Numbered from the stretch's first letter, positions 3,248 through 47,244 are shown. The stretch: DNA of 64,000 nt from Gammaproteobacteria bacterium (GCA_965215055.1 OZ244046.1:169138-233137), one strand, 5' to 3'. Numbers and translations are program-made. Notes: generated by a model not told the origin, from the sequence alone.

Positions 3248-3307
3248 ATTAGGTTATTCCATCTACTTTCTACTATAATGCATCGCAACTATGACAAGAG
3301 AACGCTT

Positions 3308-4765: not shown

Positions 4766-4786
4766 CAAGCTCTATATAGTTTTTCT

Positions 4787-6364
4787 GTGATGACCGATAT
4801 TCATGCAGATAGGGTCTTGGTCCTTGATTTTGGATCTCAATACACGCAGCTCATTGCTCGTAGAATACGTGAACTAGGTACTTACTGCGAAATCTATCCC
4901 TGGGACGTCACTCTTGAGCAAATTACCGCCTTTAATGCCAAGGGTATTGTGTTGTCTGGTGGACCTGAGTCCGTTACTTCGGATAATACTCCTGAAGTAC
5001 ATGAGCCTGTTTTGGACCTGGGGGTTCCAATATTGGGTATTTGTTATGGCATGCAAACCATGGCCAAGCAGATGGGGGGTAAGGTCGAGGTTTCGAGTAA
5101 GCGGGAATTTGGCTGGACGCAAATTAAACTTGAGGACACCTCCACGCTCTTATCTGACATCACGGATAATAAGAAACAAAACGGTATAAGTATTCTTGAT
5201 GTCTGGATGTCGCATGGTGACCGTATTGCAAAGTTGCCTGCTGGATTCAAAATCATTGCCAGTACCGATAGTGCTCCCATTGCCGCGATCGCCGATGAGC
5301 AGCGAAAGTTGTTTGGTCTTCAGTTCCATCCCGAAGTTACGCATACCGAACAAGGTAAACAAATATTAGGGCGTTTTGTACATAACATCTGTGGCTGTGC
5401 GTCTAATTGGACGACAGCGAGCGTCATTCACGAGGCTGTTGAGCATATAAGACGGCAAGTTGGTTCGGAACGAGTGCTGCTCGCACTTTCCGGTGGGGTA
5501 GATTCGTCAGTGGTCGCGGCATTGCTGCATGAAGCAATAGGTGACCAGCTTACCTGTATTTTCGTGGATACTGGCTTACTGCGCCTTGATGAAGGCGACC
5601 AGGTTATGGAAACCTTTGTTCAACACATGGGCGTGGAAGTGATCCGAGTAAATGCGGGACAACGTTATTTTGATGCATTAAAAGGTAAGTCAGGTCCCGA
5701 GGAAAAGCGAAAAATTATTGGTAACTTGTTTATCAAAATATTTGAAGAAGAAGCAATCAAGCTGGGTAATGTAAAGTGGTTGGCGCAAGGCACCATCTAC
5801 CCAGACGTTATTGAATCTGCAGGAGCGACGACGGGAAAAGCACAACTCATAAAATCTCATCACAATGTAGCCGGTCTTCCAGAAGAAATGAAGTTGAAGC
5901 TAATAGAGCCACTAAAAGAATTATTTAAAGATGAGGTACGCGCGATAGGCCTGCAGCTTGGGTTACCGAGAAACGTTATTTTTCGGCATCCATTTCCAGG
6001 TCCTGGTTTGGGTGTGCGTATATTAGGCGTGGTTAAAAAAGAATATGCAGATCTATTACGGCTGGCAGATGACATCTTTATTTCCGAACTTGAGAAGCAC
6101 AAGCTATATGATCAAGTGTCTCAAGCCTTTGCAGTTTTTTTGCCGGTAAAATCGGTAGGTGTTATGGGGGATAACAGGAAATATGACTATGTAATTGCAC
6201 TGCGTGCAGTAGAGACTGTCGATTTTATGACGGCGCGCTGGGCACGTTTGCCATATGAGTTTTTAGATCATGTTTCGCGACGCATTATTAATGAAGTAGA
6301 TGGGATTTCTAGGGTGACGTACGATGTTTCGGGAAAACCGCCCGCTACTATTGAGTGGGAATGA
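4787..6364 (+). CDS. guaA: GMP synthase (glutamine-hydrolysing)
   Basis: 525 aa. N-terminal class-I glutamine amidotransferase region (ICYGMQ), ATP-PPase P-loop SGGVDSSV, and the conserved C-terminal GMP synthase dimerisation domain ending ...PPATIEWE. Confidence 0.95.
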
Positions 6365-6495: not shown

Positions 6496-8700
6496 GTGCG
6501 TATGAGCAGGTATTGCGGAGAGAAAATAGTCGAGCCAATACTCCGTGCAGCTCAGCACTGGAAAGATGTGGGGTTGCTATCGGATAGTTCCATATTCGAT
6601 AGAGGTGCAATATGGACATTGTCAAACTTCGAAGCTCTAAATCAGCACGTTGTAAATCAGCCTAAAGAGGGAAAAAAGAGGAATTTTTTCCAGAAACTGG
6701 AGGGTCAGCTTGAACTGACGGTGCCAGGGGTGAAGCAACTCGCAGCCGAGATGCTGTGGCTAATGTTTCTCTGCCCTAGCAACATTAGTGTATCGAAAAA
6801 GCGCGAAGGCATAGAGCGTATATGGAAATGGTCAGGGGAGGCCTTTCCAGAGGATTCCGAGTGGATAAAGGATGATGTTCTGGGTGGTGTAGGCAGTGCA
6901 GGTACAGCTTTTAACACCAAGCGCTGGTGGGAGTTGAGGTTTTTTATTCGTACAATGATTGCCTTCAAAAGCCTTGCAGACCAGGAGCAAAATAAGCTCC
7001 TTTCCGATGGTTGGGAGTTCGCGCAATGGCTTGAACAAGTCCCCGAATGCGACGCTCGCCAATTGCGTCATATGTTCCTGTTTTTACTATTCCCTGACAA
7101 TTTTGAGCGTATTTTAGGAAGGAGAGATCGACGAAGAATTATCCAGAGCTTCTCAGGAAAGTCTCTGGCACAGGTCAAGAAGCTTTCGGCATTAGAGATC
7201 GATCGGAACCTCCTCGAGATACGTAGGCAAAAGGAAGAGGAGTATGGCACTAAGGAGTTGGACTTTTATGCTACCCCGCTTCGTGATCTCTGGGGTGACT
7301 CTAAGGTCGTTAAGGCAGCAAAGCAGCCAGATGATAAAAAGCGGAACGGAAGTGTCAAAATGGCCATAAACCAGATTCTGTATGGTCCTCCAGGAACAGG
7401 AAAGACCTATAGGCTTAATCGTCTAAAAGAAGAGTATTCAGGCAGAAGGCAAACCCTGAGCCGTGATGCATGGTTAATTCAGGAAATGCTGGATGCCAAG
7501 TGGTTTGATGTGATCTTTGGCACATTGTATGACCTGGGCGGTGAGGGCAAGGTCAAGGCAATTCTAAATCATGAGTACGTACAGATGAAGGCGGAGGCTT
7601 TGGGGCGTGGTCGAAACATCGCGAATACAATATGGAGAACCCTTGGGGAACATACTCGTGAAAATTCCAGTACCTCCCGATACAAGCGTCGTAGTGCACC
7701 CCTTGTATTTGACAAGAAACCAAATAGCGTATGGTCGTTGGTCGATGACTGGGAGGAAGAATGTGCAGAGCAGGTGGAGCAAGCCAAGAAATGGAAAACT
7801 GGTCCCAAGCAAGAGGCGTCTTATCAACGGTATGAGTACGTGACGTTTCATCAAGCCTATAGCTACGAAGATTTCGTCGAGGGTATTAGGCCTGTTCAGA
7901 ATGAGGAAACTGAAAATATCGGTTATCAGGTATTGCCCGGTGTATTCAAACGGATATGCCAAAGGGCAAAAGCAGACCCCGATCAGCGGTATGCGATTTT
8001 TATTGATGAGATAAACAGGGGGAACATTGCCAAAATATTTGGTGAGCTGATTACCTTGATAGAAGAAGATAAAAGGGCGATATATAACGATGCCGGAGAC
8101 CTGAAGTCTGGGATGGAGTTGACTCTTCCTTATTCAGGTATGCGATTTGGTGTTCCTGAAAATTTGGATGTCTACGGGACAATGAACACGGCGGACCGCT
8201 CTATAGCCTTACTGGATACTGCGTTACGACGTCGTTTCCAATTCGAAGAGTTAATGCCTGATGCTGGCGTAATTGTTGGCTCACGTGGTGATGGTTGTAT
8301 CGAGGATGGGGGTGGTGGCGTTATCAACCTGCGTGCCTTACTGGAGGCTATGAATCGTCGTATCCGCTTCCTGTTAAACAGAGATATGATGATTGGGCAT
8401 GCCTATTTCATCGACGTGCGTAATTTTGATGATCTCAAGGTGGTTTTGTTCAACAAGATTATTCCCCTTCTGCAGGAATACTTCTATGAGAACTGGCACA
8501 GGATCCAGTTGGTATTCCGAGATGTAGGTCCGACGGGAGAAAAACTGGAACCACAGATTGTATGTCATGACACGCTAAACGAAGTAGAGGTGCTTGGGTT
8601 CGATCATGATGACTTTGATGATCTTACAGAGTACTGGGTTGTAGACTCGGATGAGATCACGCCCGATGCGGTCAGGAAGGTATACGAAGAAGGTGCCTGA
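6496..8700 (+). CDS. mcrB: McrB-like AAA+ GTPase subunit of a type IV (modification-dependent) restriction system; long form with an uncharacterized N-terminal domain
   Basis: Walker A ILYGPPGTGKTY; McrB signature FHQAYSYEDFVEGIRP...; Walker B/McrB motif AIFIDEINRGNIAKIFGELITLIE; arginine finger region TMNTADRSIALLDTALRRRFQFEEL. About 290 aa precede the AAA+ module, and about 125 extra residues sit between Walker A and the FHQAYSYEDF motif relative to E. coli McrB. Confidence 0.8.
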   Translation: MRMSRYCGEKIVEPILRAAQHWKDVGLLSDSSIFDRGAIWTLSNFEALNQHVVNQPKEGKKRNFFQKLEGQLELTVPGVKQLAAEMLWLMFLCPSNISVSKKREGIERIWKWSGEAFPEDSEWIKDDVLGGVGSAGTAFNTKRWWELRFFIRTMIAFKSLADQEQNKLLSDGWEFAQWLEQVPECDARQLRHMFLFLLFPDNFERILGRRDRRRIIQSFSGKSLAQVKKLSALEIDRNLLEIRRQKEEEYGTKELDFYATPLRDLWGDSKVVKAAKQPDDKKRNGSVKMAINQILYGPPGTGKTYRLNRLKEEYSGRRQTLSRDAWLIQEMLDAKWFDVIFGTLYDLGGEGKVKAILNHEYVQMKAEALGRGRNIANTIWRTLGEHTRENSSTSRYKRRSAPLVFDKKPNSVWSLVDDWEEECAEQVEQAKKWKTGPKQEASYQRYEYVTFHQAYSYEDFVEGIRPVQNEETENIGYQVLPGVFKRICQRAKADPDQRYAIFIDEINRGNIAKIFGELITLIEEDKRAIYNDAGDLKSGMELTLPYSGMRFGVPENLDVYGTMNTADRSIALLDTALRRRFQFEELMPDAGVIVGSRGDGCIEDGGGGVINLRALLEAMNRRIRFLLNRDMMIGHAYFIDVRNFDDLKVVLFNKIIPLLQEYFYENWHRIQLVFRDVGPTGEKLEPQIVCHDTLNEVEVLGFDHDDFDDLTEYWVVDSDEITPDAVRKVYEEGA

Positions 8701-35348: not shown

Positions 35349-36155
35349 ATGAAACTTGATTATTCCAAGCCCTTACTCATGGGTGTGCTCAACGTCACTC
35401 CGGACAGTTTTTCTGACGGTGGTATATATCCCTCTTCCAAGGACGCTATCACCCGAGGTATCGAGATGGTTGAGCAGGGTGCCGATATCATCGACGTTGG
35501 TGGAGAATCCACGCGTCCCGGAGCACAGCGTATTGATGCTACTGAACAAAAGCGCAGAGTTATTGACGTAATTGCCGGATTGCGTAAAGAGCTACCTCAA
35601 CATATCCATATCAGTATTGATACGACGCTGTTAGAGGTAGCCAAGGCCTCTTTGGATGCAGGAGCCTCCATGTTAAACGATGTCAGTGCAGGTCGAGAAG
35701 ACAAAAACATGCTGAAACTTGCAGCCGACCTGAACTTACCCATTTGTCTTATGCACATGCAGGGCACTCCTGAAACCATGCAGGACAATCCCAGCTACAA
35801 GGACGTCACTAAGGAAGTCACGAACTTCTTACACAAGCGAGCGAATACAGCAGAAGCCGTGGGCGTGGAAAAAGAAAATATCATCCTTGATCCTGGTATT
35901 GGTTTTGGAAAGCGTACCGAGCATAATTTGAAATTACTACGGGACATAGAAAAACTGACTGGCCTGGGCTATCCCGTTTTACTTGGTACAAGTCGCAAGC
36001 GTTTTATGGGGAAGGGAGACCCGCATGAGAGAGTACCGGCAACCTGTGCGACCACTGCACTCGGCGTATTGGCTGGAGTCAGAATTTTCCGGGTACACGA
36101 CATTTGGCAAAATCGCCAAGCCATGGACATTGCATGGGCGATACACACCTGCTGA
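35349..36155 (+). CDS. folP: dihydropteroate synthase
   Basis: Pterin-binding domain: MGVLNVTPDSFSDGG, DIIDVGGESTRPGA, downstream GIGFGK. The start is taken at MKLDYSKPLLMG (Met18 of the listed ORF). Confidence 0.85.
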   Translation: MKLDYSKPLLMGVLNVTPDSFSDGGIYPSSKDAITRGIEMVEQGADIIDVGGESTRPGAQRIDATEQKRRVIDVIAGLRKELPQHIHISIDTTLLEVAKASLDAGASMLNDVSAGREDKNMLKLAADLNLPICLMHMQGTPETMQDNPSYKDVTKEVTNFLHKRANTAEAVGVEKENIILDPGIGFGKRTEHNLKLLRDIEKLTGLGYPVLLGTSRKRFMGKGDPHERVPATCATTALGVLAGVRIFRVHDIWQNRQAMDIAWAIHTC

Positions 36156-36232
36156 AAGGTAAAAGGCAGATAAACTGTGCAGCGAGCACCGTGAGAAACA
36201 ATACCCCTTGGCAAGGAGACAAGAGGGGTTTG

Positions 36233-36535
36233 TCAAAGCACTGCCTCAAACCCTTCAAACTCTGGTTTACCAAGATAAACCGGCTTTGCTTCCCCGGCCT
36301 TCGCGTGTGCCTTTCGAAATGCCTCGGACTTTGTCCATGCCTCGAATGCCCGTCTGGATTCCCAGATTGAATGTGAGGCAAACAGACTGTACTCGCCGGT
36401 AGAAGGGCCCCTTAGTAGGTGAAACTCCTTGAATCCTGGCACTTCATCCAGAAAAGATTCACGATTTTTCCAGATTTCAAGAAAATCATCCTCGCAACCG
36501 GGGATTATCTTAAAACGATTCATTGCAATGAACAT
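36233..36535 (-). CDS. antibiotic-biosynthesis-monooxygenase (ABM) domain protein
   Basis: 100 aa with the ferredoxin-like ABM fold pattern (MFIAMNRFKIIPGCEDDFLEIWKNRESFLDEVPGFKEFHLLRG...). Confidence 0.55.
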   Translation of the reverse strand: MFIAMNRFKIIPGCEDDFLEIWKNRESFLDEVPGFKEFHLLRGPSTGEYSLFASHSIWESRRAFEAWTKSEAFRKAHAKAGEAKPVYLGKPEFEGFEAVL

Positions 36536-36571
36536 GGACTATTCTCCTGGTGAATTTCCCTGATACTTAAA

Positions 36572-37114
36572 CTATTTATTGACGGCAGGACTTATCAACA
36601 CCTCGGCATCCCAATCGAATGTGCTACCAATAAACGCCTTGATACAAAATAGCACACTCGCAATCATCCCCCAGACTAATCCGGCCACAACGCCTGCATC
36701 CAGCAGCCCTCGCCATGGTTGTGGAAGCAACCGAAACAATAAAACAAAAATAATTATTGCTACCGTCAATGTAAGCGTGGCGATAATGCGTTTTTTGGGA
36801 GCGTGGAAATAACTCATACAAAACAAGGGCGCCAGCAGCAGCTGGACAGGCGTAGCGTGGTATAGCAAATACTTGGCCCGTGCAGCAAAGCGTGGTGCAA
36901 AGCTCTTTTGAAAGCCTTTATAACCTTCGCTGTAGAGCATGAAAATTAGAAAAATAATAAACACCAACCAATGCATCCAACTCAACGACATTTTCAGTGC
37001 TGCAATTGAATTCAAGCCAAGTCGCCAAGAGGCAAAACCCAGTAGCGCTGACAACCCAATAATTCCCCAGGCCGTGGCAATCATTCCGGCAAAGGTTATT
37101 GGCCCCTTGTACAT
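36572..37114 (-). CDS. hypothetical integral membrane protein (4-5 TM helices)
   Basis: 180-aa hydrophobic ORF; no family assignment possible by eye. Confidence 0.4.
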   Translation of the reverse strand: MYKGPITFAGMIATAWGIIGLSALLGFASWRLGLNSIAALKMSLSWMHWLVFIIFLIFMLYSEGYKGFQKSFAPRFAARAKYLLYHATPVQLLLAPLFCMSYFHAPKKRIIATLTLTVAIIIFVLLFRLLPQPWRGLLDAGVVAGLVWGMIASVLFCIKAFIGSTFDWDAEVLISPAVNK

Positions 37115-37342
37115 TAAGAATCTTAAGGAGTTATCGTCAAGAAATGATTAGTTCAGGACGTAGAATTGAGTTTCACTTATCGGGTTGATCGTAACTACAT
37201 GTTATGAAAACCATTATAGCGAATATTTCCATACATGTTTCTTGGAATGATGAAAAGTACCGTATTGTATATGCGTTTCTATATAATAAGCAGTGTGAAA
37301 TAAATTTGGTCAAAGTTAAACGTTTACTGACAGGGGTAGTAC

Positions 37343-37729
37343 ATGTCGAAGTGGCGAGATATTAAATCTGAACAAACCTACTCGGAAGAGCAGATCAAGG
37401 AACGATTGGCTGAAGAATTACCTACCTGGTTTTATGAAAACGGCTGGATACGTCGGAAGTATAGAACGCATAGCTGGAAGAGTACATTGATGGTGGTGAA
37501 CACCATTGGTCATTTGGCGGAAGCAGCGTTTCATCACCCCGATTTGACGGTATCTTACGCCTTTGTAATTTGTAAATTGATGAACCACGCTGCCAAGGGA
37601 GTTACGAACAAGGACTTCGAGTTAGCCAAAAAGATCGAAGAAGTGCTGATGTGGCAACCAGGCAAAGAAGAGGGAGACCTGGAGGGAACCCCCAGCGACC
37701 CACGCTTTGCTTATATCCAGTACAAGTAG
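37343..37729 (+). CDS. pterin-4a-carbinolamine dehydratase-like protein (PCD/DCoH family) with an N-terminal extension
   Basis: Contains the family signature ...AFHHPDLTVSYAFV...NHAAKGVTNKDFELAKKIEE (H-H-P-D ... H ... G-x-T-x-x-D). Confidence 0.6.
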   Translation: MSKWRDIKSEQTYSEEQIKERLAEELPTWFYENGWIRRKYRTHSWKSTLMVVNTIGHLAEAAFHHPDLTVSYAFVICKLMNHAAKGVTNKDFELAKKIEEVLMWQPGKEEGDLEGTPSDPRFAYIQYK

Positions 37730-37736
37730 CTTTTCA

Positions 37737-38327
37737 TTATCGAGGCAAATCAGGCAGCAATTTTTTTACTGCAGTAGTAATAGCTTGCGGGGGCAACCCA
37801 TAGGGGATGATATTGGTTACCGTCCCTTGCTGGTTGATAATGTATAGATTGGATGTGTGGTCTACAGTGTAAGTGCCGGCCGAGGTATTTCCTTCATACG
37901 AATAGAATCCGTGAAACTGCTTGACTACTTTATCTATTTCTTCAATTTTCCCTGTTAAACCAATAAAGTTATTACCAAAATACTCCATATATTTCTTTAA
38001 CACCTCAGGCGTATCTCGCTTGGGGTCCACGCTGATAAATAACGGCTGTACCTGAATAGCTTGGTCCCCCATTTGATTCAACGCAGTTTGCACGGTGCTT
38101 AACGTATTTGGGCACACGTCCGGACAATGCGTAAATCCGAAAAACAGGACTATTATTTTGCCTCTGGAAGCTATTGAGGAATAGGGTTTATTGAGGTGGG
38201 AAGTGAGGGTAAAGTCTCCACCCAGAGCTTCTTCTTCGGCCAGGGAATTTAAGGCAAATAAACCAAGACAAATCGATATAATCAAGTGACGAGGCAGGCA
38301 ACGCACAATACTGTTGATTGGAAGCAT
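37737..38327 (-). CDS. SCO1/SenC family copper chaperone (thioredoxin fold), secreted
   Basis: Canonical CxxxCP motif FGFTHCPDVCPNTL and ISVDPKRDTPEVLKKY. The start is taken at MLPINSIVRCL... (signal peptide); the ORF is open to 38477. Confidence 0.7.
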   Translation of the reverse strand: MLPINSIVRCLPRHLIISICLGLFALNSLAEEEALGGDFTLTSHLNKPYSSIASRGKIIVLFFGFTHCPDVCPNTLSTVQTALNQMGDQAIQVQPLFISVDPKRDTPEVLKKYMEYFGNNFIGLTGKIEEIDKVVKQFHGFYSYEGNTSAGTYTVDHTSNLYIINQQGTVTNIIPYGLPPQAITTAVKKLLPDLPR

Positions 38328-38555
38328 ATCCAATTTAGAGGCTTTGACTTGCCGACAGTTCCGTGTAGGGGCTATGGCAAGAAAGGGTATATATCTTTGC
38401 TTGAGTAGAGCAGGTAAGGTACAATACAGCATGACTATTCGCTGGTTTGACAAGTCTTTAACAGGGTACGTAAGCAAGGCATTGCTTGAGTCTTAGGAAA
38501 TAGGAAAGTCGGACTGTAGTCTAAAGCAAATAATACCATTTATGGAGTCATAACA

Positions 38556-39938
38556 ATGATTGAGAAAATGGCAAGAATACAAGCCAAACTGATGCAAAGT
38601 ACACTCGCATTTCTGTGTGTCGTGTTGGCGTCTTTTTTTGGTTTTCACTCTACTGTCGTGGCAGACGAGACATGCATGTCCCCCTACATGGCAAAAATTG
38701 TTGGTCAGGAAGACTACGTATATGTATGGACACTGGGTGTAGAAGGTTTGGGTGATGAGCAGGACAAGCTTGTTACCATCTCTGTAAACCCGAATTCAGA
38801 GCACTACGGAAAAGTGGTAAACGTACTTTCCGTAGGCGGCCGTAATGAGGCTCACCACTCCGGTTTAACCGATGATCGTCGCTACCTGTTTGCAGGTGGC
38901 TTGGACAGCAACAAGATCTTTGTTTTTGATGTTCATTCCAATCCAGCCAAACCCAAGCTGCACAAAGTCATTACCGATTTTGTTGAAAAGACGGGAGGTA
39001 TGGTAGGCCCTCATACAATGTATGCGCTACCAGGCCGAATTATGGTGAGTGCCCTGTCTAATAACGTCGATCATGGCGGACGCACCGGGCTCGCGGAATA
39101 CTCCAATGAAGGAGATTTTATAGCTGCTCATTGGATGCCTACGGATGAAGATTTGCGTGGTGCGGAAAAGGTAGGAGATGCTGCTGATGGCTATGGTTAT
39201 GACGTTCGCGTTTTGCCCAGGCGAAACGTGATGGTTACTTCTTCGTTTACCGGCTGGTCCAATTATATGATGGATTTTGGCAAGATGCTGGCGGATGGAG
39301 AAGCCATGAAGCGTTTTGGCAATACCGTGGTGGTTTGGGATTTGCATACACGCAAGCCTGAAAAGGTCTTTGAAGTTCCCGGAGCACCGTTGGAAATTCG
39401 TTGCGCGTGGGGTGCGCATCATAACTACTGTTTTACCACTACCGCGTTGACCTCTCAAATCTGGTTGATTTATGAAGATGATACTGGTGAGTGGCAGGCA
39501 AAAGCGGTGGCCGATATTGGAGAACCTGCCAAGGTACCGTTACCGGTTGATATTTCCATCACTGCGGATGACAAGGGACTTTGGGTACAGACTTTCATGG
39601 ATGGTAAAACCCGGTTTTTTGATATCTCGGACCCTTTTAATCCCAAGCAGACCTATGAGCATCAGATTGGCTCCCAGGTGAACATGATCTCGCAAAGCTG
39701 GGACGGCAAGCGTGCCTACTTTACGTCCTCTCTGCTGGGTAACTGGGACAAGACCGGCGAGCAGGATGAGCAGTTTTTCAAGCTGTTCGGTTGGGACGGT
39801 GAAAAACTTACGCACGAGTTTACGGTAGATTTTTACGAGTTGAAGTTGGGTCGTGCGCATCAAATGAGGTTTGGTGCATATTCACTGTATTCGCAAAAGC
39901 CGAATTTAACGGGCACGATGTTGTCTCAATTAGAGTAA
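38556..39938 (+). CDS. mtoX: selenium-binding protein 56 family protein, probable methanethiol oxidase
   Basis: 460 aa, collinear with SBP56/SELENBP1 (SVNPNSEHYGKVVNVL vs DVDPKSPQYCQVIHRL; the HHSG motif; KLHKVI; a beta-propeller-like repeat architecture). Has an N-terminal signal peptide. Followed by SCO1-like and MauG-like genes, as reported for mtoX loci. Confidence 0.8.
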   Translation: MIEKMARIQAKLMQSTLAFLCVVLASFFGFHSTVVADETCMSPYMAKIVGQEDYVYVWTLGVEGLGDEQDKLVTISVNPNSEHYGKVVNVLSVGGRNEAHHSGLTDDRRYLFAGGLDSNKIFVFDVHSNPAKPKLHKVITDFVEKTGGMVGPHTMYALPGRIMVSALSNNVDHGGRTGLAEYSNEGDFIAAHWMPTDEDLRGAEKVGDAADGYGYDVRVLPRRNVMVTSSFTGWSNYMMDFGKMLADGEAMKRFGNTVVVWDLHTRKPEKVFEVPGAPLEIRCAWGAHHNYCFTTTALTSQIWLIYEDDTGEWQAKAVADIGEPAKVPLPVDISITADDKGLWVQTFMDGKTRFFDISDPFNPKQTYEHQIGSQVNMISQSWDGKRAYFTSSLLGNWDKTGEQDEQFFKLFGWDGEKLTHEFTVDFYELKLGRAHQMRFGAYSLYSQKPNLTGTMLSQLE

Positions 39939-39992
39939 GGAGTGGCTCTGTTACAGCAATGTAACCGACGACAGTCTGAACTACGGGAACAG

Positions 39993-40022
39993 GGCCGCCC
40001 ATGAGGCGGCCTTGTTGTTTTT
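39993..40022 (+). terminator. Rho-independent terminator between mtoX and the downstream SCO1-like gene
   Basis: GGCCGCC-catga-GGCGGCC (7-bp GC stem, 5-nt loop) followed by TTGTTGTTTTT. Confidence 0.55.
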
Positions 40023-40038
40023 GGACCGTGTTTCATAA

Positions 40039-40776
40039 ATGAAAAATAGTAACGCACTGCTTTTAATAGCATCTCTATTTGTGCTGTCTGCATGTTTTGA
40101 CACGGACGATGGTGAGCCACTGCCTCAATCCCACGCCGCAAGAGCTGAAGTTTTGGTGATAGCGAACGGCTGGACACCCAGCTTGTCTTTTGATATTCCG
40201 CAGCCCGGCACTTACACATTGCCTGATTTAGGCACGGCAGGCGGCGGCTCTGTCTTGAGCACCGATGGTAAAGCGCTTGAGTTGGAGAATTTTTTTGGCG
40301 ATAAAATTGTACTACTTACTTTCATATACAGCAGTTGCACGGACTTGAACGGATGTCCATTGGCTACTGCCGTTTTTTACAAAATTAAGGAACAGTTTAG
40401 GAAAGACCCCGCTCTCGCTGATCAGATCCGCCTTGTTAGCATAAGTTTTGACCCGCAGCACGATACGCCTGAAGTGATGAAATTATATAGCGCAGGATTT
40501 GCAGACGGTGACCCGCAGTGGCTGTTTTTTACTACCGCATCTGAAGGTACATTACAGCCCATTCTCGATCAATATGGGCAGATGGTGATCAAGGGATATG
40601 ATGAAGAGGGGAATTACACGGGCACGATGGCGCATGTATTACGCGCATTTTTAATTGATCGATCAAAAAATATTCGACAGCAATATAGCGTTTCATTTCT
40701 GCACGATCAACTTGTTACTGCTGATATCAAGACTATTCTTATCGAAGATGGAATTCTAGAGACGAGCATAAACTAA
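40039..40776 (+). CDS. SCO1/SenC-like lipoprotein with a variant metal-binding motif
   Basis: Lipoprotein-type signal (LLIASLFVLSAC). The thioredoxin-fold SCO block TFIYSSCTDLNGCP has C-x5-C in place of the canonical C-x3-C; ISFDPQHDTPEVMKLY is conserved. Confidence 0.65.
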   Translation: MKNSNALLLIASLFVLSACFDTDDGEPLPQSHAARAEVLVIANGWTPSLSFDIPQPGTYTLPDLGTAGGGSVLSTDGKALELENFFGDKIVLLTFIYSSCTDLNGCPLATAVFYKIKEQFRKDPALADQIRLVSISFDPQHDTPEVMKLYSAGFADGDPQWLFFTTASEGTLQPILDQYGQMVIKGYDEEGNYTGTMAHVLRAFLIDRSKNIRQQYSVSFLHDQLVTADIKTILIEDGILETSIN

Positions 40777-40778
40777 CT

Positions 40779-42125
40779 ATGCAGCAACTTGGCGGGAAGA
40801 TTTCACTAACTGTCGTTAATGCGCTTATCCTTGCGATAGTTGTCACCCTGGTTGTCATATTGGCCCGCTTGCAAGGTTCAGCGGACACCCTAAAACAACA
40901 GGCAATATTTGGCCCGGGTGATGATAAGCGAGGTTATGATTCAGTTGACTACAGGACGAACTCACTTGATCTGCAAAAACGCATTGGCAAGGACGCCAAT
41001 CTACTGGAGTTTTTGGTCAGCCCTCCTTTGGGACTACCTGAAGTTCCGGTTCCTGCAGACAATCCGGTTACTGCCAAAAAAGTAGCATTGGGAAGAAAGT
41101 TGTTCTTTGATCGGCGACTGTCGATCAACGACACATTCTCTTGTGCAATTTGTCATATACCTGAACAAGGCTTTGCTAACAATGAACTGGAAACAGCGAT
41201 AGGTGTTGAAGGACGTACCGTCAAGCGTAATGCACCGACGGTATATAACACAGCGTATCTGGAAAAGATTTTTCATGATGGGCGTGAATCGACTCTGGAA
41301 CAGCAAGTCTGGGCACCTTTATTGGCGCGTAATGAAATGGCGAATCCATCCATCGGCTATGTAATCAATAAAATAGAAGCTATTCGCGAATATGAAGGCT
41401 TGTTTGAGGCCGCTTTTGATGGTCGTGGACCGACTATGGAGACGGTCGGAATGGCGCTGGCCAGTTATCAACGGACCCTCAATGCTGCTAATTCACCATT
41501 TGATCGCTGGTATTTTGGCAGACAGCAAAATGCAGTAAAAGAACAGGTAAAAAAAGGCTTTAAAATTTTTACGGGTAAAGGCGCCTGCAGCACCTGTCAT
41601 CTAATACATGATGATTACGCACTATTTACGGATAACCGGTTACATAACACGGGTCTTGGGTACCAGGTATCCATGGGCATTGAGCCCGAAACAAAAAGAG
41701 TGCAGTTAGCGCCTGGTGTATTCACGGATTTGGACACCAGTGTAATTCGCTCAGTTTCCAAGGCAAAAGAAAATGATTTGGGCTTGTACGAAATTACTGG
41801 AGACCCCGGTGATCGTTGGAAATTTCGTACCCCTTCCCTGCGTAACGTCGCACTGACGGCCCCCTATATGCACAATGGCACTATGCAGACCCTGCGTGAA
41901 GTAATTGAATTTTATAATCATGGTGGAATTCCCAATGAGTTGCTCAGCCCTTTGATCAAACCACTGCATCTGACGAATGTGGAAATTGATAATTTAATCG
42001 CCTTTCTGGAGTCACTGACAGGGGGTAACATCCCTGTTTTGGTAGCAGACGCCTTTGCCGCGCCGATTGGAGACCTTGGTACTGATGACCCGAATTGGGC
42101 GCATGAAAATAAATTGAAATATTAA
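40779..42125 (+). CDS. di-haem cytochrome c peroxidase / MauG family protein
   Basis: Two haem-binding CxxCH motifs (CAICH and CSTCH) in the spacing typical of bacterial CCP/MauG; 448 aa with an N-terminal TM/signal anchor. Confidence 0.8.
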   Translation: MQQLGGKISLTVVNALILAIVVTLVVILARLQGSADTLKQQAIFGPGDDKRGYDSVDYRTNSLDLQKRIGKDANLLEFLVSPPLGLPEVPVPADNPVTAKKVALGRKLFFDRRLSINDTFSCAICHIPEQGFANNELETAIGVEGRTVKRNAPTVYNTAYLEKIFHDGRESTLEQQVWAPLLARNEMANPSIGYVINKIEAIREYEGLFEAAFDGRGPTMETVGMALASYQRTLNAANSPFDRWYFGRQQNAVKEQVKKGFKIFTGKGACSTCHLIHDDYALFTDNRLHNTGLGYQVSMGIEPETKRVQLAPGVFTDLDTSVIRSVSKAKENDLGLYEITGDPGDRWKFRTPSLRNVALTAPYMHNGTMQTLREVIEFYNHGGIPNELLSPLIKPLHLTNVEIDNLIAFLESLTGGNIPVLVADAFAAPIGDLGTDDPNWAHENKLKY

Positions 42126-42187
42126 TAGCCTAAACTGGCCGTGGAGACTCTGCACAGAAAGTTTGCTTGTAGAAAAGGTATGCGGCA

Positions 42188-42805
42188 ATGCAAAAAATCA
42201 TAATCTTTTTTATATTGGCACTTTTGTCTGTGAACGCTGCATGGGCAGGGAGGCTCATGGACCCCGTCGTCGGTGAACCACAAGCCAATGGGTTTAACCT
42301 GGACACAGTCGACGGTGTAGCAATCGACCTGCGTGACTATACAGGCAAGTTTGTATTATTGAATTTTTGGGCCACGTGGTGCCTGCCTTGCCGCGAGGAA
42401 ATGCCTGCAATGAGTAATTTGTACGATCAACTTGCCGATGTAGGGCTGGAAGTAGTAGGGATACACGTTGGCCCCAGCTTGAAGGACGTCAAGAAATTTT
42501 TAGAGAAAGTGCCGGTTAATTTTACAATTCTTATTGACAAGGACATGAGTCTTGTAAACTGGGGTGTTCACGGATTGCCGACTACGTTTTTGATTAACTC
42601 GAATGGTAAACTGATCTACCAAGCCATAGGCGAGCGTCAGTGGGATTCGCCTGAAATGGTAAAGTTCTTGACTGGCTTGATTGCTGATCGTGGGCACGTA
42701 GCAGTTGAAGAATCACCTGCCGTAGTTAAGCAAAGAAAGTCATTTTTTGCTGTTCTCAAGGAGTCCATCGGATGGAATCGTGATCATCGGGAACCCGCCA
42801 ATTAA
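42188..42805 (+). CDS. TlpA/ResA-like periplasmic thiol:disulfide oxidoreductase (thioredoxin family)
   Basis: Signal peptide; thioredoxin motif NFWATWCLPCREEMP. Confidence 0.75.
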   Translation: MQKIIIFFILALLSVNAAWAGRLMDPVVGEPQANGFNLDTVDGVAIDLRDYTGKFVLLNFWATWCLPCREEMPAMSNLYDQLADVGLEVVGIHVGPSLKDVKKFLEKVPVNFTILIDKDMSLVNWGVHGLPTTFLINSNGKLIYQAIGERQWDSPEMVKFLTGLIADRGHVAVEESPAVVKQRKSFFAVLKESIGWNRDHREPAN

Positions 42806-42831
42806 TTTACTCCAGGATTAATATCTGCTGA

Positions 42832-43122
42832 ATGTTACGTGAGGAAGACATAACAGGGCTTGTGCGGGAATATCTTGCAGAACACTTCCCGGGTACGACG
42901 ATTGAGCACTGGCGACAAGAAGGGCAGGAAAGCATACACTTTCGCATCACTGAGAACAAAAATACTTACATCCTGCGGCTCATGGACGAATGCCTGGACG
43001 GCCTTCAAGTCGACGAGGTGAAACCTATGTTGGAGAATTACAATGTCGCACAAATCATGCGTGACATCGGTGATTTTCCCACGGTGGTTACAAAGACCGG
43101 CTGCATTTTCGGGTCACCCTGA
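42832..43122 (+). CDS. hypothetical protein
   Basis: 96-aa ORF with no recognisable motif. An antisense ORF of similar size overlaps it, so coding status is uncertain. Confidence 0.3.
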   Translation: MLREEDITGLVREYLAEHFPGTTIEHWRQEGQESIHFRITENKNTYILRLMDECLDGLQVDEVKPMLENYNVAQIMRDIGDFPTVVTKTGCIFGSP

Positions 43123-43217
43123 CCACTCTTTCGCCTTTATACTTCACAGGGTGCCAACCGTTTTGCATGAGCAAAAGCTAGTTTGCCCATAGCTTAGTAC
43201 GTAAAAAAAGCCGGATA

Positions 43218-43490
43218 CTATTCCGCGGTTGTGGGATCAATCACGGTTTTGATTTGTGAAACTTTATTTGCTGGAAATCCACCTTCTTTAGCGTGCTTTA
43301 ATATTTCTTCTTCATTAGGGGCAATATAAGTGCAATAGACCTTGTCATCCGTCACAAGACTCTCTACCCACTGAACTTGTGGGCCCATGTTCTTAAGAAT
43401 ACTGCATGATTTTTGCGAGATACCCTGTAGCTCGGCAGCACTTAAATTACCTGCACCGGGAATTTCTCGCTCGATGATATATTTTGGCAT
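43218..43490 (-). CDS. DUF4242-like small protein (assignment from memory)
   Basis: 90 aa: MPKYIIEREIPGAGNLSAAELQGISQKS... This resembles the DUF4242 family of about 90-aa proteins. Confidence 0.45.
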   Translation of the reverse strand: MPKYIIEREIPGAGNLSAAELQGISQKSCSILKNMGPQVQWVESLVTDDKVYCTYIAPNEEEILKHAKEGGFPANKVSQIKTVIDPTTAE

Positions 43491-43769
43491 AGTGAAATCC
43501 TCCTGCTATATAGAAGAGTTAAATTGGTAAAGGTTTCAACCAGCTTAAACTTTTTGGCCTTGCATCAATTGCACATAATAATTGAAGCACCTGATATTAT
43601 GCACTATACATTAGAATATGGTAATATCTACTGGCCTGCGAACCACTTTATTCACCCACATATGCGGACTGATATATTAGCTGGCTACGGCTTGGTAGAC
43701 TGAAACACTCATCTTGTTCTAAACAGACCAGTATGCGTAGTTACTCGATGGCCAATTAGGAGTTTATAG

Positions 43770-44123
43770 ATGCCGGAAACCATGATTCTTATTCCAGGCC
43801 GTTCACAAAGTCAGGGAACATCGTTAAATGAAGGCAAACTCAAGGATGAATACTTGAAAGTGACCTCTACCGCTGAGTTAAATGAAGGAGATATGCGACG
43901 TTTGAAGCTCAGTGATGGTGACAAGATTCGCCTGATGACGGAGGTTGGGCAGACCGTTGTGACTTGCAAAAGTAAAAAGAACGAGGACTTGCCGCCAGGG
44001 ATGATATTCATACCTTATGGGCCCCCTTCAAGCCAGCTGATGGGATCAGATACGGGGGCTTCCGGAATGCCAATGTCAAAACACATGCAAGTTGAAGTCA
44101 CAAAAGTGAAAAAATCATCCTGA
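43770..44123 (+). CDS. formylmethanofuran dehydrogenase subunit D-like protein (molybdopterin-dinucleotide-binding-type beta-barrel domain)
   Basis: 117 aa; pattern LIPGRSQSQGTS...GMIFIPYGPP...GASGMPMSKHMQVEVTKV parallels archaeal FwdD (LNTGRT..QG ... GMP.FKGFKV.V). Located directly upstream of fhcB. Confidence 0.55.
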   Translation: MPETMILIPGRSQSQGTSLNEGKLKDEYLKVTSTAELNEGDMRRLKLSDGDKIRLMTEVGQTVVTCKSKKNEDLPPGMIFIPYGPPSSQLMGSDTGASGMPMSKHMQVEVTKVKKSS

Positions 44124-44157
44124 GATAGAGTTCCCGGTAGACATAAGGAAAACTGAA

Positions 44158-45531
44158 ATGGCGGAAACGACACCATCGAAATCAGGGAATAAGCCTGTAG
44201 AGAAAAAAAACATAAAGATTGTCAAGGATGCAACCTGTACTTTTTGCGGTTGTGTCTGTGATGACATGGAGCTTACCGTAGACCTTGATGAGCATCGCAT
44301 TACCAAGGCCAAAAAGGCATGTGTACTGGGTCGGGCATGGTTTTACGAGCACACTTTGGAAGATCGTCCCGTAGTCCTGATTGATGGCAAGGAGGCGGAT
44401 CTGGAGGAAGGTATTGAGGTCGCCGCGCAAGTTTTGGTAAATGCGAAATTTCCAATTACCTATGGCTTAAGTGATTCGCCTTGTGAGGCGCAGCGTGTTG
44501 CGGTAGGCATTATGGACACCATCAACGGCAACATTGATACTACGACCTCCGTTTGCCATGGCCCATCGGGCATGGCTTTTCAGGGCGTAGGTGAAAGTAC
44601 TGCAACGTTGGGTGAAATAAGAAATCGTGCTGACCTGGTAGTCTATTGGGGAGGAAACCCTGCCGAGTCTCATCCTCGGCATTTCACCCGTTACGCCGTA
44701 ACACCAAAGGGAATGTATATTCCAAATGGCAAGAAAGATCGTACCGTAGTCCTCGTTGACGTGCGCAGAACACCTAGCACGCCGGTGGCAGATATATTCG
44801 TGCAGATTAAACCGGGAAAGGACTTTGAACTGCTTTGGGCGTTGCGCGCGCTGGTTAAAGGTAGAAGCATCAATGATAACATTGAAGAAGAAACCGGTGT
44901 TTCAAGAGAACTTCTTGATGATCTGGTGCATCGCATGAAAAACGCGCAGTACGGTGTTCTATTCCTGGGTATGGGGCTGACTATGACAAGAGGGCGCCAT
45001 TTTAACTCTGGTGCCATATACTCTTTGGTCGCAGATCTTAACAAGCATACGCACTTTGTTGCCAAACCTGTACGCGGCCATGGCAACGTAACGGGTGCTG
45101 ATAACGTCGTATCCTGGCAGACCGGGTATCCATTCGGCGTCAATTTTAATCGCGGCTACCCGAGATTTAATCCTGGCGAGTTCACTACGAGCGACGTGCT
45201 TTCTCGCGGAGAAACGGATGCTGCAATGATTATTGCTTCTGACCCGGCATCGAATTTTCCCAAGAAAGCGATTAACCATTTGAAAAAAATTCCAGTTATT
45301 ACCCTGGATGCAAAAGAAACGCATACGACCAGAATTTCTAAGGTGCGTTTTGCCGTGGCAACGTATGGCATCAATACGGGGGGGACAGTGTATAGAATGG
45401 ATGATGTTCCCATCTCATTGAGACCTGCTTTTGATTCACCTTTTCCGACGGATCAGGAGGTATTGGAGGGGATACACAAACGTGTAAAAGAACTGGTCAA
45501 GAGAAGCAGGACAAGAAGGATAGCCGCTTAG
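44158..45531 (+). CDS. fhcB: formyltransferase/hydrolase complex subunit B (FwdB/FmdB homologue, molybdopterin-oxidoreductase fold)
   Basis: 457 aa; N-terminal Cys cluster CTFCGCVCDDM as in FwdB; position within the fhc cluster. Confidence 0.75.
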   Translation: MAETTPSKSGNKPVEKKNIKIVKDATCTFCGCVCDDMELTVDLDEHRITKAKKACVLGRAWFYEHTLEDRPVVLIDGKEADLEEGIEVAAQVLVNAKFPITYGLSDSPCEAQRVAVGIMDTINGNIDTTTSVCHGPSGMAFQGVGESTATLGEIRNRADLVVYWGGNPAESHPRHFTRYAVTPKGMYIPNGKKDRTVVLVDVRRTPSTPVADIFVQIKPGKDFELLWALRALVKGRSINDNIEEETGVSRELLDDLVHRMKNAQYGVLFLGMGLTMTRGRHFNSGAIYSLVADLNKHTHFVAKPVRGHGNVTGADNVVSWQTGYPFGVNFNRGYPRFNPGEFTTSDVLSRGETDAAMIIASDPASNFPKKAINHLKKIPVITLDAKETHTTRISKVRFAVATYGINTGGTVYRMDDVPISLRPAFDSPFPTDQEVLEGIHKRVKELVKRSRTRRIAA

Positions 45532-45597
45532 ATAAACAACTATTTTCTTTATAACGGCTACATTTACCGTAGTTGTTATTTTTAAGAATAATTACAA

Positions 45598-47244
45598 ATG
45601 TCATCAGAATTACGAATCGTCAATGGCCGTGTTTACGACCCCGCCAATAATATTGACGGCAAAATTCAGGACATCTGTATCAAAGATGGCAAAATCGTAG
45701 ATTCCGTCTCGAGTTCCGCCGTTAAAATCAATGCGCATGGCATGGTCGTCATGCCTGGTGCGATAGATATCCATTGTCATATCGCGGGGCCCAAAGTCAA
45801 CCTCGCGCGTAAACTGCTGCCAGAAGATCATCGCCTGGACGTTCATCCCAGGACTGCGGTCACGCGCTCCGGCACCGGCGGCATCGTGCCTTCAACGTTC
45901 GCTACCGGCTATCGCTATGCCACCATGGGATATACCACGGCGATGGAGGCTGCGGTACCCCCGATTACTGCAAGACATGTACTCGAGGAACTGGACGATA
46001 CGCCCGTTATCGACAAGGGTTTTTATGTGCTGCTGGGCAACAATGCATTCCTGTATAAACTTTTGAAAGAAGGGCGTAAAAAAGAGTTCAAAGAGGCTAT
46101 CGCATGGTGGGTCGATTCAGTACATGGTTACACCGTCAAATTGGTGAATACGGGGAGCGATGAACTTTGGAAGGGTCGTAAAAACGCCAATATTACTGAC
46201 GTGAACGAAACCATTGATCATTATGACATTACACCAATTCATGTTATCGAGAGCTTCATTGAAGCCGCGCATGAGCTAGGTTTTCCACATCCTCCGCACA
46301 TTCACTGCAACAACCTGGGCCATAGCGGTAATATCAGCACCACTTTAGACACCATGAAGGCTGCGCAGGGGCGGCGTGTGCATATAGCACATGTCCAGTT
46401 TCACAGTTTTGGAGGAGAGCTGAATAAAAATCCCGTCTCAGGCGCGCAGCAGATTATCGATTACGTAAACGAACATGAAAATATCACTACCGATGTAGGT
46501 CAAGTCATGTTCGGCAAAGCCACTGCCATGACGGCAGATGCCCCGCTGGCCTGGATGTTGCGTGACGTCAAGTTCGACAAGTGGGTTAATGCAGACACAG
46601 AGTGTGAAAGTGGTTGCGGCATCATTCCATTCTCGTACCAGCAGAGCGTATACACGCATACCTTGCAATGGGCCATGGGCCTGGAATTGTTCTTGATGTC
46701 CAAAGACCCCTGGCGCGTATTATTATCGACCGACCATCCCAATGGGGGTTCCTTCATGAACTACCCCAAGCTTGTCAGGCTACTGATGGATAGTGCTTAT
46801 CGGAAAGAGGCCTTAAAGCATGTGAATCAAAAGGCTATCGATAAAACTGCATTATATGATCTTGATCGGGAGTACACACTTAACGAAATCGCGATCATTA
46901 CCCGGGCGGGACCTGCGAGGGCTTTGGGTTTAACGAACAAAGGTCATCTTGGCGTTGGTGCCGATGCGGATATTACGATCTATACCGAGGAAGAAAACAA
47001 GGAAGAAATGTTCAATGCGCCGCGCTACGTGATCAAGGACGGCGTGGTGGTAATTGAAGACCATGAGTTTGCAACTGATCATAAAGGCAAGATACTGCAC
47101 TCAAAACCAGGCTACAACAAAGATATTGCAAAAGAGATCGAACCTTTTTTTGAGAGCTATTATTCAGTTAAATTTAGTAATTACGCGATTGGTGATGAGT
47201 ATCTGCATCACCATGAAGAAATTCCCACCAAGCCCAAATCGTGA
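45598..47244 (+). CDS. fhcA: formyltransferase/hydrolase complex subunit A (FwdA homologue, amidohydrolase fold)
   Basis: 548 aa; amidohydrolase metal-binding HxH (DIHCHIAG) and other FwdA-like blocks. Confidence 0.8.
   Translation: MSSELRIVNGRVYDPANNIDGKIQDICIKDGKIVDSVSSSAVKINAHGMVVMPGAIDIHCHIAGPKVNLARKLLPEDHRLDVHPRTAVTRSGTGGIVPSTFATGYRYATMGYTTAMEAAVPPITARHVLEELDDTPVIDKGFYVLLGNNAFLYKLLKEGRKKEFKEAIAWWVDSVHGYTVKLVNTGSDELWKGRKNANITDVNETIDHYDITPIHVIESFIEAAHELGFPHPPHIHCNNLGHSGNISTTLDTMKAAQGRRVHIAHVQFHSFGGELNKNPVSGAQQIIDYVNEHENITTDVGQVMFGKATAMTADAPLAWMLRDVKFDKWVNADTECESGCGIIPFSYQQSVYTHTLQWAMGLELFLMSKDPWRVLLSTDHPNGGSFMNYPKLVRLLMDSAYRKEALKHVNQKAIDKTALYDLDREYTLNEIAIITRAGPARALGLTNKGHLGVGADADITIYTEEENKEEMFNAPRYVIKDGVVVIEDHEFATDHKGKILHSKPGYNKDIAKEIEPFFESYYSVKFSNYAIGDEYLHHHEEIPTKPKS

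Follow-up and report, generated by a model that had tools for sequence, protein, structure and literature searches.

Introduction

The closest described relatives of the gene cluster analyzed here are the operon-like units of mtoX, SCO1/senC and mauG, which are conserved in many bacteria, including Hyphomicrobium and Ruegeria pomeroyi (Eyice et al., 2018; PMC5739008). In that study, the SCO and MauG proteins were proposed as maturation factors for a methanethiol oxidase (MtoX) that contains copper and possibly tryptophan tryptophylquinone (TTQ). MtoX purified from Hyphomicrobium contained copper, and an mtoX knockout of R. pomeroyi showed that the gene is needed for methanethiol oxidation. In Methylophaga thiooxydans, both mto clusters comprise mtoX, a sco1/mauG fusion and a gene of the TlpA-like family, and the genes 3' of mtoX are co-induced with it on dimethylsulfide (DMS) (Kröber and Schäfer, 2019; PMC6548844). 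Precedents for the individual steps come from other systems: TlpA reduces ScoI prior to its metallation (PMC6669012), and MbnH creates the kynurenine residue of a copper site in MbnP (PMC11951088). Here we report on an mtoX cluster within a 64,000-nucleotide stretch of gammaproteobacterial DNA (GCA_965215055.1, OZ244046.1:169138-233137), hereafter the window, in which mtoX is accompanied by genes for two SCO proteins, a di-haem protein and a TlpA-like protein between positions 37343 and 42805.

Comparison with these systems revealed that the window carries a typical copy of the already described mtoX cluster. Its gene order is that of R. pomeroyi SPOA0269-0271 and of the Hyphomicrobium sp. VS operon; relative to R. 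pomeroyi, MtoX is 69% and the di-haem protein 53% identical, the SCO loop is of the same type, and the same His, Trp and Cys residues are present. Unlike the Hyphomicrobium/R. pomeroyi operon, the window adds a divergent canonical SCO1 gene, a TlpA-like gene, a 96-residue open reading frame (ORF), a DUF4242 gene and a pterin-4a-carbinolamine dehydratase (PCD)-like gene, is without the upstream IclR regulator, has a strong hairpin behind mtoX, and belongs to an uncultured gammaproteobacterium with adjoining genes of the tetrahydromethanopterin (H4MPT) pathway. As in M. thiooxydans, a gene of the TlpA-like family stands behind the SCO and di-haem functions, and all products are predicted to be periplasmic. 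In the Methylophaga clusters, however, SCO and MauG are fused and followed by the TlpA-like-family gene, pdo, sqrB and sulP, whereas in the window the di-haem gene is separate, starting 2 nt past the stop codon of the SCO gene, and formylmethanofuran dehydrogenase genes take the place of pdo/sqr/sulP. The Methylophaga ‘tlpA’ is likened here by its description, and may correspond to either the TlpA-like gene or the canonical SCO gene of the window. A preliminary description of the locus had implied novelty, but both the mtoX/SCO/mauG operon (PMC5739008) and a TlpA-like gene downstream (PMC6548844) had been published. The details that we did not find described are a loop signature of the SCO protein, triple gene fusions, a covariation at Trp234 of MtoX, and the DUF4242 and PCD-like neighbors.

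Results

A secreted MtoX with all proposed ligands

The product of mtoX scores 767.1 bits on the NCBIfam equivalog NF052453 (MthilOxMtoX; cut-off 650), with 407 of the 408 model positions aligned, and 170.7 bits on PF05694. Alignment to R. pomeroyi MtoX places H100, H101, H153 and H435 at the proposed copper ligands H88, H89, H141 and H424, whose counterparts proposed for the Hyphomicrobium enzyme are H89, H90, H140 and H412. All four histidines proved invariant, at first among 84 and then among about 140 homologs. Likewise, W234 and W397 correspond to W223 and W386, the proposed cofactor (TTQ) tryptophans, and C40 to the essential Cys28; W397 and C40 are invariant in the homologs collected. 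The translation begins with a Sec-type signal peptide, MIEKMARIQAKLMQSTLAFLCVVLASFFGFHSTVVA, followed by DETCMSPY; the predicted mature start DETC agrees with the sequenced N-terminus of Hyphomicrobium MtoX, DETXNSPF. Judged from these alignments, the window protein is a secreted, putatively copper-dependent MtoX that keeps all proposed ligands. The earlier assignment as a secreted SBP56 protein and probable MtoX was therefore sound, and the metal ligands on which it hinged are all in place.

In some genomes, mtoX is present in a second copy that lacks accessory genes in its vicinity (L019, L022, L023, L025 and L029); on contig CBDCUI010000009.1, for instance, a bare copy (L023) occurs in addition to a full cluster (L005). 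At another locus (L017, 6346-9377), three successive ORFs match MtoX, possibly a duplicated or frameshifted gene. In addition, a 663-residue protein (P0231) fuses an SBP56 part to the SCO variant. Its SBP56 part is devoid of the His-His pair and the C-terminal His ligand, and may be a degenerate or non-catalytic relative of MtoX; as support for a link between SCO and MtoX, we regard this fusion as a weak argument.

Conserved synteny and gene fusions tie the accessory genes to mtoX

For comparison, 80 genome, 3 plasmid, 80 metagenome and 12 context loci were fetched and the window proteins were mapped onto their ORFs. Synteny was counted over the 102 loci whose flanks reach 1.5 kb or more upstream and 3 kb or more downstream of mtoX, a set that is biased towards relatives and not composed of independent cases. 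The SCO variant lies directly 3' of mtoX in 91 of these loci (89%), and a di-haem gene is found near mtoX in 89 (87%), fused to the SCO variant in 31. A TlpA-like gene is present in 48 (47%) and a canonical SCO gene in 35. The arrangements vary: SCO and di-haem genes are separate or fused, the di-haem gene may stand upstream on the other strand, and the canonical SCO gene is either upstream and divergent or downstream. Such differing arrangements argue for selection on the linkage itself. The gene arrangement is not due to chance, as it recurs in about 90% of the 102 loci.

Gene fusions point in the same direction. Fusions of the SCO variant with the di-haem protein gave 3745 database matches at E ≤ 1e-10. 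Two longer proteins of about 805–817 residues, P0361 and P0122, consist of an SCO variant (C-x5-CP), a di-haem part and, at the C-terminus, a canonical SCO protein (C-x3-CP). The context look-up covered P0361, which lies directly 3' of an SBP56-family gene in all three contigs (L164 at 3023-5440, L165 and L166). These triple fusions tie the canonical SCO1 upstream of mtoX in the window to the same function. Thus, both conserved synteny and gene fusions connect the SCO variant, the di-haem protein, the TlpA-like protein and canonical SCO1 with mtoX.

The same data bear on the view that canonical SCO1 and the TlpA-like protein are housekeeping factors of cytochrome oxidase assembly that merely lie beside mtoX. 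It is true that ScoI and TlpA serve the assembly of the cytochrome oxidase CuA site in Bradyrhizobium (PMC6669012). However, both genes recur beside mtoX in differing orders and orientations in unrelated lineages, canonical SCO is joined to the SCO variant and the di-haem part in P0361 and P0122, and a scan of ORFs and domains detected no oxidase genes within about 6 kb on either side of the cluster. We consider a chance neighborhood very improbable.

The SCO variant belongs to a subfamily with a longer putative metal-binding loop

The loop of the SCO variant, CTDLNGCP, has the form C-x5-CP and departs from the textbook CX3CP criterion. All 119 close homologs share the spacing C-x5-C[PA]. A search of 1.84 billion representative proteins yielded 5635 matches at E ≤ 0.001 and 123 at E ≤ 1e-30; among the best 150 of the 5635, 130 have C-x5-C[PA], 8 have C-x3-CP and 12 are fragments, which amounts to 130 of the 138 informative ones. 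The loop signature of this large subfamily is C-x-[DE]-x-x-G-C-P, and SPOA0270 of R. pomeroyi reads CGDVNGCP. A motif peculiar to this genome was thus rejected; the spacing that the preliminary description had singled out as an uncharacterized part of the locus is the subfamily norm, including in the experimentally studied R. pomeroyi operon. No mention of the C-x-[DE]-x-x-G-C-P loop was found in the literature that was searched.

We also rejected the idea that the C-x5-C spacing by itself tracks the di-haem gene, since three loci with CAAPKACP-type loops (L172, L173 and L175) have none. In the sample, only the loop version with [DE]-x-x-G co-occurs with the di-haem gene; a locus with the loop CSDPQGCP does have it.

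Apart from a two-residue insertion in the loop, the SCO variant aligns to Bradyrhizobium japonicum ScoI without further insertion. C100, C106 and H199 are invariant in the homolog alignments, and H199 aligns with the distal His of ScoI, which completes the Cys-Cys-His site. The AlphaFold2 model has a predicted local distance difference test (pLDDT) score of 85.6. Human SCO1 and the ScoI proteins of B. japonicum and A. thaliana are its top structural matches, with target-normalized template modeling (TM) scores of 0.83–0.87, and thiol peroxidases and peroxiredoxins come next behind the SCO proteins. Ten look-ups of members of the subfamily, with identities down to 35%, retrieved 12 loci, in all of which the gene lies directly 3' of an SBP56-family gene. 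Because of this placement, we assign the SCO variant to an MtoX-dedicated SCO subfamily, which by alignment and model retains the SCO fold and the ligand triad.

The di-haem protein forms a branch of the MauG/BthA/MbnH group

The best match of the di-haem protein in the PDB is BthA (6E1C) with 148 bits, as compared with about 120–140 bits for canonical peroxidases and 87 bits for MauG. It has the CCP_MauG fold and the two CxxCH motifs of MauG, and Y379 aligns with MauG Tyr294 (chain 3L4M; ILFYNK versus IEFYNH), from which axial ligation of the six-coordinate haem by this tyrosine is predicted. In peroxidases of the family the position is a Met ligand (VKIMGS in MacA), whereas the tyrosine is invariant in all 67 mtoX-linked di-haem sequences. 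Between the haems, the Trp of bacterial cytochrome c peroxidases (FWDGR), Trp93 in MauG, is His166 here (FHDGR); of the 67 mtoX-linked homologs, 48 have His at this site, 12 have Leu and 4 have Gln. BthA shows the same two features, Tyr/His ligation and absence of the inter-haem Trp, which the window protein shares by alignment.

Several closer assignments were tried. A true MauG was rejected, as TIGR03791 gives 203.5 bits against a cut-off of 443.85 and no methylamine dehydrogenase genes lie nearby. Unlike MauG, the protein has His at the inter-haem position and no mau operon, and its presumed substrate is an SBP56 β-propeller. The top NCBIfam match is MbnH, an enzyme that creates a residue derived from Trp at a copper site in the periplasm. 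A true MbnH was rejected as well, as TIGR04039 gives 241.2 bits against 362.85 and there is no MbnP-like ORF nearby. In contrast to BthA and MbnH, the window has neither a phosphatase partner nor an MbnP gene, and the partners of the di-haem protein are MtoX and SCO proteins. An ordinary peroxidase is unlikely because Tyr replaces the Met ligand. From its sequence, the protein is best placed in a branch of its own within the MauG/BthA/MbnH group, one that is linked to MtoX.

These features weigh on an alternative in which the di-haem protein would act in the periplasm as a peroxidase and clear the H2O2 formed by MtoX, with the SCO and TlpA-like proteins supplying electrons or acting as thiol peroxidases. 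H2O2 is indeed a product of the accepted MtoX reaction, and M. thiooxydans induces catalase and peroxiredoxin on DMS (PMC6548844). With an external electron donor, BthA, which is the nearest relative of known structure, shows turnover of H2O2, and thiol peroxidases and peroxiredoxins are the next structural neighbors of the SCO variant. Nevertheless, Y379 is the MauG-type tyrosine in 67 of 67 sequences rather than the Met of detoxifying peroxidases, and the SCO variant, with its Cys-Cys-His triad, is closest to true SCO proteins. Moreover, the position of the SCO subfamily beside SBP56-family genes in 12 of 12 loci is tighter than a general detoxification module predicts, and one study saw no H2O2 from R. 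pomeroyi MtoX (PMC10936201). We therefore regard peroxide handling as an unlikely explanation of the cluster.

A candidate target of the di-haem protein emerged from the MtoX alignment. All 123 di-haem-linked MtoX sequences have W234. The residue is replaced by Lys in two sequences of the Skermanella type (L082 and L084) and by Phe in one from a Microvirga ossetica plasmid (L083). None of these three loci has a di-haem gene, and their SCO protein carries a C-x3-CP loop, CGD[VIL]CP. A search limited to the Skermanella and Microvirga plasmids found no mtoX-type di-haem gene. The other loci without the di-haem gene retain W234.

The TlpA-like protein and its possible role

The TlpA-like protein contains the motif WATWCLPC and a signal peptide read from the translation, MQKIIIFFILALLSVNAAWA; W61, W64, C65, C68 and E71 are invariant. 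It scores below both subfamily cut-offs, with 118 bits versus 170 for the ResA subfamily and 86.6 versus 230 for the TlpA equivalog. Close relatives (L001, L003, L005, L006, L008, L010, L011 and others, at about 11.5–12.3 kb) have two tandem TlpA-like paralogs behind the di-haem gene, of which the window keeps only the second.

The pairing of a membrane-tethered SCO protein with a periplasmic thioredoxin-like reductase resembles the TlpA-ScoI-CoxB system for copper delivery in Bradyrhizobium diazoefficiens; ScoI ranks among the top matches of the SCO variant by sequence as well as by structure. Unlike that system, the presumed client here is MtoX instead of cytochrome oxidase, one SCO protein has C-x5-CP instead of CX3CP, and the reductase reads CLPC rather than CVPC and falls below the TlpA equivalog cut-off.

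Alternatively, the TlpA-like protein, perhaps with SCO, might keep Cys40, the one essential cysteine of MtoX, reduced in an oxidizing periplasm or resolve off-pathway Cys-S-S-CH3 adducts, with no copper delivery involved. Consistent with such thiol upkeep, C40 is invariant, Cys28 of the R. pomeroyi enzyme is needed for activity and forms methanethiol adducts (PMC10936201), and Sco homologs have been argued to act as reductases where no TlpA-like protein exists (PMC6669012). Yet about half of the loci have no TlpA-like gene, and the SCO variant retains the distal H199, a residue that metal binding requires and disulfide exchange does not. Furthermore, the copper in purified Hyphomicrobium MtoX (PMC5739008) leads one to expect a chaperone role. 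Thiol upkeep as the sole function seems improbable to us; it could coexist with copper delivery.

A conserved hairpin separates mtoX from the accessory genes

Behind mtoX, a hairpin with a 12-bp stem and 8 G-C pairs (39988-40016) is followed by the U-run GUUUUUGG. It is essentially the feature that had been placed at 39993-40022 as an intrinsic terminator. The 100-nt intergenic region folds with −39.5 kcal/mol, a z-score of −3.8 relative to shuffled sequences. The stretch from the U-run to the ATG of the SCO variant measures only about 14 nt, and no promoter-like site was found between the hairpin and this start codon. Such a distance leaves no room for a promoter, so that the accessory genes would be read through from mtoX or from an mtoX-internal promoter.

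A hairpin was scored as present at a folding energy of −10 kcal/mol or lower with a T-run behind it. Where SCO is a separate gene and the intergenic gap measures 40 nt or more, 48 of 74 loci qualify, versus 2 of 74 shuffled controls. For fusion-type loci the numbers are 7 of 34 versus 1 of 34. The position after mtoX is kept across clades, whereas the stem sequences are clade-specific. A conserved hairpin agrees with a transcript level of mtoX above that of the accessory genes, and we infer that MtoX is made in excess over its helpers.

PCD-like and DUF4242 genes as probable partners

The motif E-x3-HHP-x5-Y-x9-H-x8-D is complete in the translation of the PCD-like gene, which lies on the plus strand and not, as had been noted, on the opposite one. 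A PCD-like gene occurs near mtoX in 34 of the 102 loci at varied positions (for example L055 at 7452, L149 at 5409, L066 at 11753 and L112 at 3232). The copies of a low-GC clade are only about 30% identical to that of the window, yet occupy the same place. By this recurrence, it is a probable associated gene of mtoX.

In 50 of the 102 loci, a DUF4242 gene, which encodes 90 residues in the window, is found no farther than about 6 kb from mtoX, with 59–93% identity to the window copy (for example L030 at 7599, L096 at 5440-5775 and L102 at 7413-7685). Four arrangements occur: directly upstream in the same orientation (Methylococcales), downstream in the opposite orientation (the clade of the window), directly downstream, and behind an SCO/di-haem fusion. 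The gene is present in all six metagenome loci that have enough flank and no SCO variant or di-haem gene. C29, C53 and H66 of its product are invariant, and the protein has no signal peptide. From these patterns, DUF4242 is probably another partner of mtoX. The literature yielded no paper that connects the two, and a PDB sequence search with the protein returned nothing meaningful. The label ‘nickel-responsive’ was rejected for this protein, since the nickel ligands of SCO4226 are Streptomyces-specific and the label is not transferable.

Layout of the locus

Every gene and the hairpin of the preliminary description were recovered at their places by ORF calls and domain matches (Table 1). For canonical SCO1, the mechanical ORF extends to 38477; the true start is probably the Met at 38330, which would give a signal peptide. 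The PCD-like and canonical SCO1 genes are convergent, with stop codons 7 nt apart, and 62 nt separate the di-haem gene from the TlpA-like gene. The 96-residue ORF begins 26 nt past the latter, matches no Pfam or NCBIfam family, and is found at the equivalent place in L039 as well as in close relatives.

Table 1. Features of the mtoX cluster and adjoining genes in the window
Feature	Position	Strand	Evidence
HmuQ-type haem-degrading protein and 180-residue membrane protein without family match	36233-37114	-	HmuQ NCBIfam equivalog, 153 bits versus 130
PCD-like gene (pterin-4a-carbinolamine dehydratase family), cytoplasmic	37343-37729	+	PF01329, 85.7 bits; NCBIfam NF002017, 82.7 versus cut-off 80
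Canonical SCO1/SenC copper chaperone, secreted, divergent from mtoX	37737-38330	-	PF02630, 153 bits; CPDVCP
mtoX, SBP56 family, periplasmic Cu-dependent methanethiol oxidase (predicted)	38556-39938	+	NF052453, 767 bits
Terminator-like hairpin and U-run, gap between mtoX and accessory genes	39988-40024	+	Folding
SCO-variant lipoprotein, lipobox LSAC	40039-40776	+	PF02630, 53.2 bits (cut-off 22.8); CTDLNGCP
MauG/BthA/MbnH-type di-haem protein, N-terminal membrane anchor	40779-42125	+	PF03150 CCP_MauG, 175 bits; CAICH, CSTCH
TlpA/ResA-like periplasmic thiol-disulfide oxidoreductase	42188-42805	+	PF00578 and PF08534 (Redoxin/AhpC-TSA); WCLPC; signal peptide
96-residue protein, no family match	42832-43122	+	ORF; C-terminal FP.VVT..GCIFGSP conserved
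DUF4242/SCO4226-like small cytoplasmic protein	43218-43490	-	PF14026, 93 bits
Formylmethanofuran dehydrogenase subunits D-like, B, A	43770-47244	+	Downstream of mtoX cluster

Upstream of the cluster lie lepA, a gene of the metallo-β-lactamase fold, folP, the HmuQ-like gene and the membrane protein gene; the pair of the last two is kept in a few close relatives (L003 and L012). An Rfam scan of 36000-44000 gave a single match below threshold, the small RNA Cis2 (20.6 bits versus 50, E = 0.76), which we take as chance. The nearest relatives are gammaproteobacterial metagenome-assembled genomes, whose MtoX is at most 88% identical. Because formylmethanofuran dehydrogenase genes adjoin the mtoX cluster, the host looks like a methylotroph with an H4MPT route of formaldehyde oxidation. 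In the clade of the window, a formaldehyde-producing oxidase thus adjoins genes of H4MPT-linked formaldehyde oxidation.

Discussion

On balance, the locus is probably the methanethiol oxidase operon of a methylotrophic gammaproteobacterium with a dedicated accessory set that matures MtoX. Of the maturation line that the preliminary description had drawn, the linkage of the SCO, di-haem, TlpA-like and canonical SCO genes to mtoX stands, by synteny and fusions; its outline had been published before, and the maturation itself is what we infer from this linkage. We propose a putative model as follows. Initially, the TlpA-like protein would keep the cysteine pairs of the SCO proteins reduced in the periplasm, and both SCO proteins would load copper into apo-MtoX. 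The di-haem protein, being often fused to SCO proteins, probably works with them in one complex. It would use H2O2 or O2 to oxidize an MtoX residue, most likely W234 and perhaps W397 with it, the product being a Trp-derived cofactor or ligand. The hairpin, acting as a leaky terminator or a 3'-end stabilizer, would keep MtoX in excess over the helpers, which would be transcribed by read-through only. Finally, formaldehyde from the MtoX reaction would feed the H4MPT-linked oxidation pathway encoded immediately downstream.

Several points weigh against this model. We found no genetic or biochemical test of the accessory genes in the literature for any organism, and copper binding by the C-x5-C loop is so far a prediction. 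Four mtoX copies are bare of adjacent accessory genes (L019, L023, L025 and L029), six loci have the DUF4242 gene with neither the SCO variant nor the di-haem gene (L091, L096, L097, L102, L106 and L110; a TetR gene is present in both of those inspected), and the TlpA-like gene accompanies only about half of the loci. The covariation of W234 with the di-haem gene comprises just two independent substitution events, which makes it a lead rather than a finding. When R. pomeroyi MtoX with a His tag was produced in E. coli by itself, it still consumed methanethiol, with unusual products and low turnover (PMC10936201). In addition, human SELENBP1 and RdMTO, which are SBP56-type oxidases of the cytoplasm, require copper only (PMC13603461), so that a Trp-derived cofactor is not required for the chemistry across the SBP56 family. 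Given the activity of lone R. pomeroyi MtoX and these copper-only enzymes, maturation may raise activity or metal occupancy without being strictly required.

A more specific version of the model, which we put forward tentatively and hold to be possible rather than probable, would unite the SCO variant, the di-haem protein and canonical SCO in one periplasmic machine that loads copper into MtoX and oxidizes Trp234 to a cofactor derived from the protein or to a copper ligand. Lineages that lost the di-haem protein would have relaxed both the SCO loop and Trp234, and the DUF4242 and PCD-like proteins would be further components of the methanethiol oxidase system.

Methanethiol oxidation is a central step of the marine and soil sulfur cycle, in the turnover of dimethylsulfoniopropionate (DMSP) and DMS, and the human MtoX homolog SELENBP1 is medically relevant. 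The window itself adds nothing new in kind. The comparative data, however, supply concrete targets for work on the cofactor of the periplasmic bacterial MtoX and on its need for dedicated maturation factors: the loop signature of the SCO subfamily, the fusion proteins as material for biochemistry, Trp234 as the candidate residue, and the DUF4242 and PCD-like genes as neighbors of mtoX.

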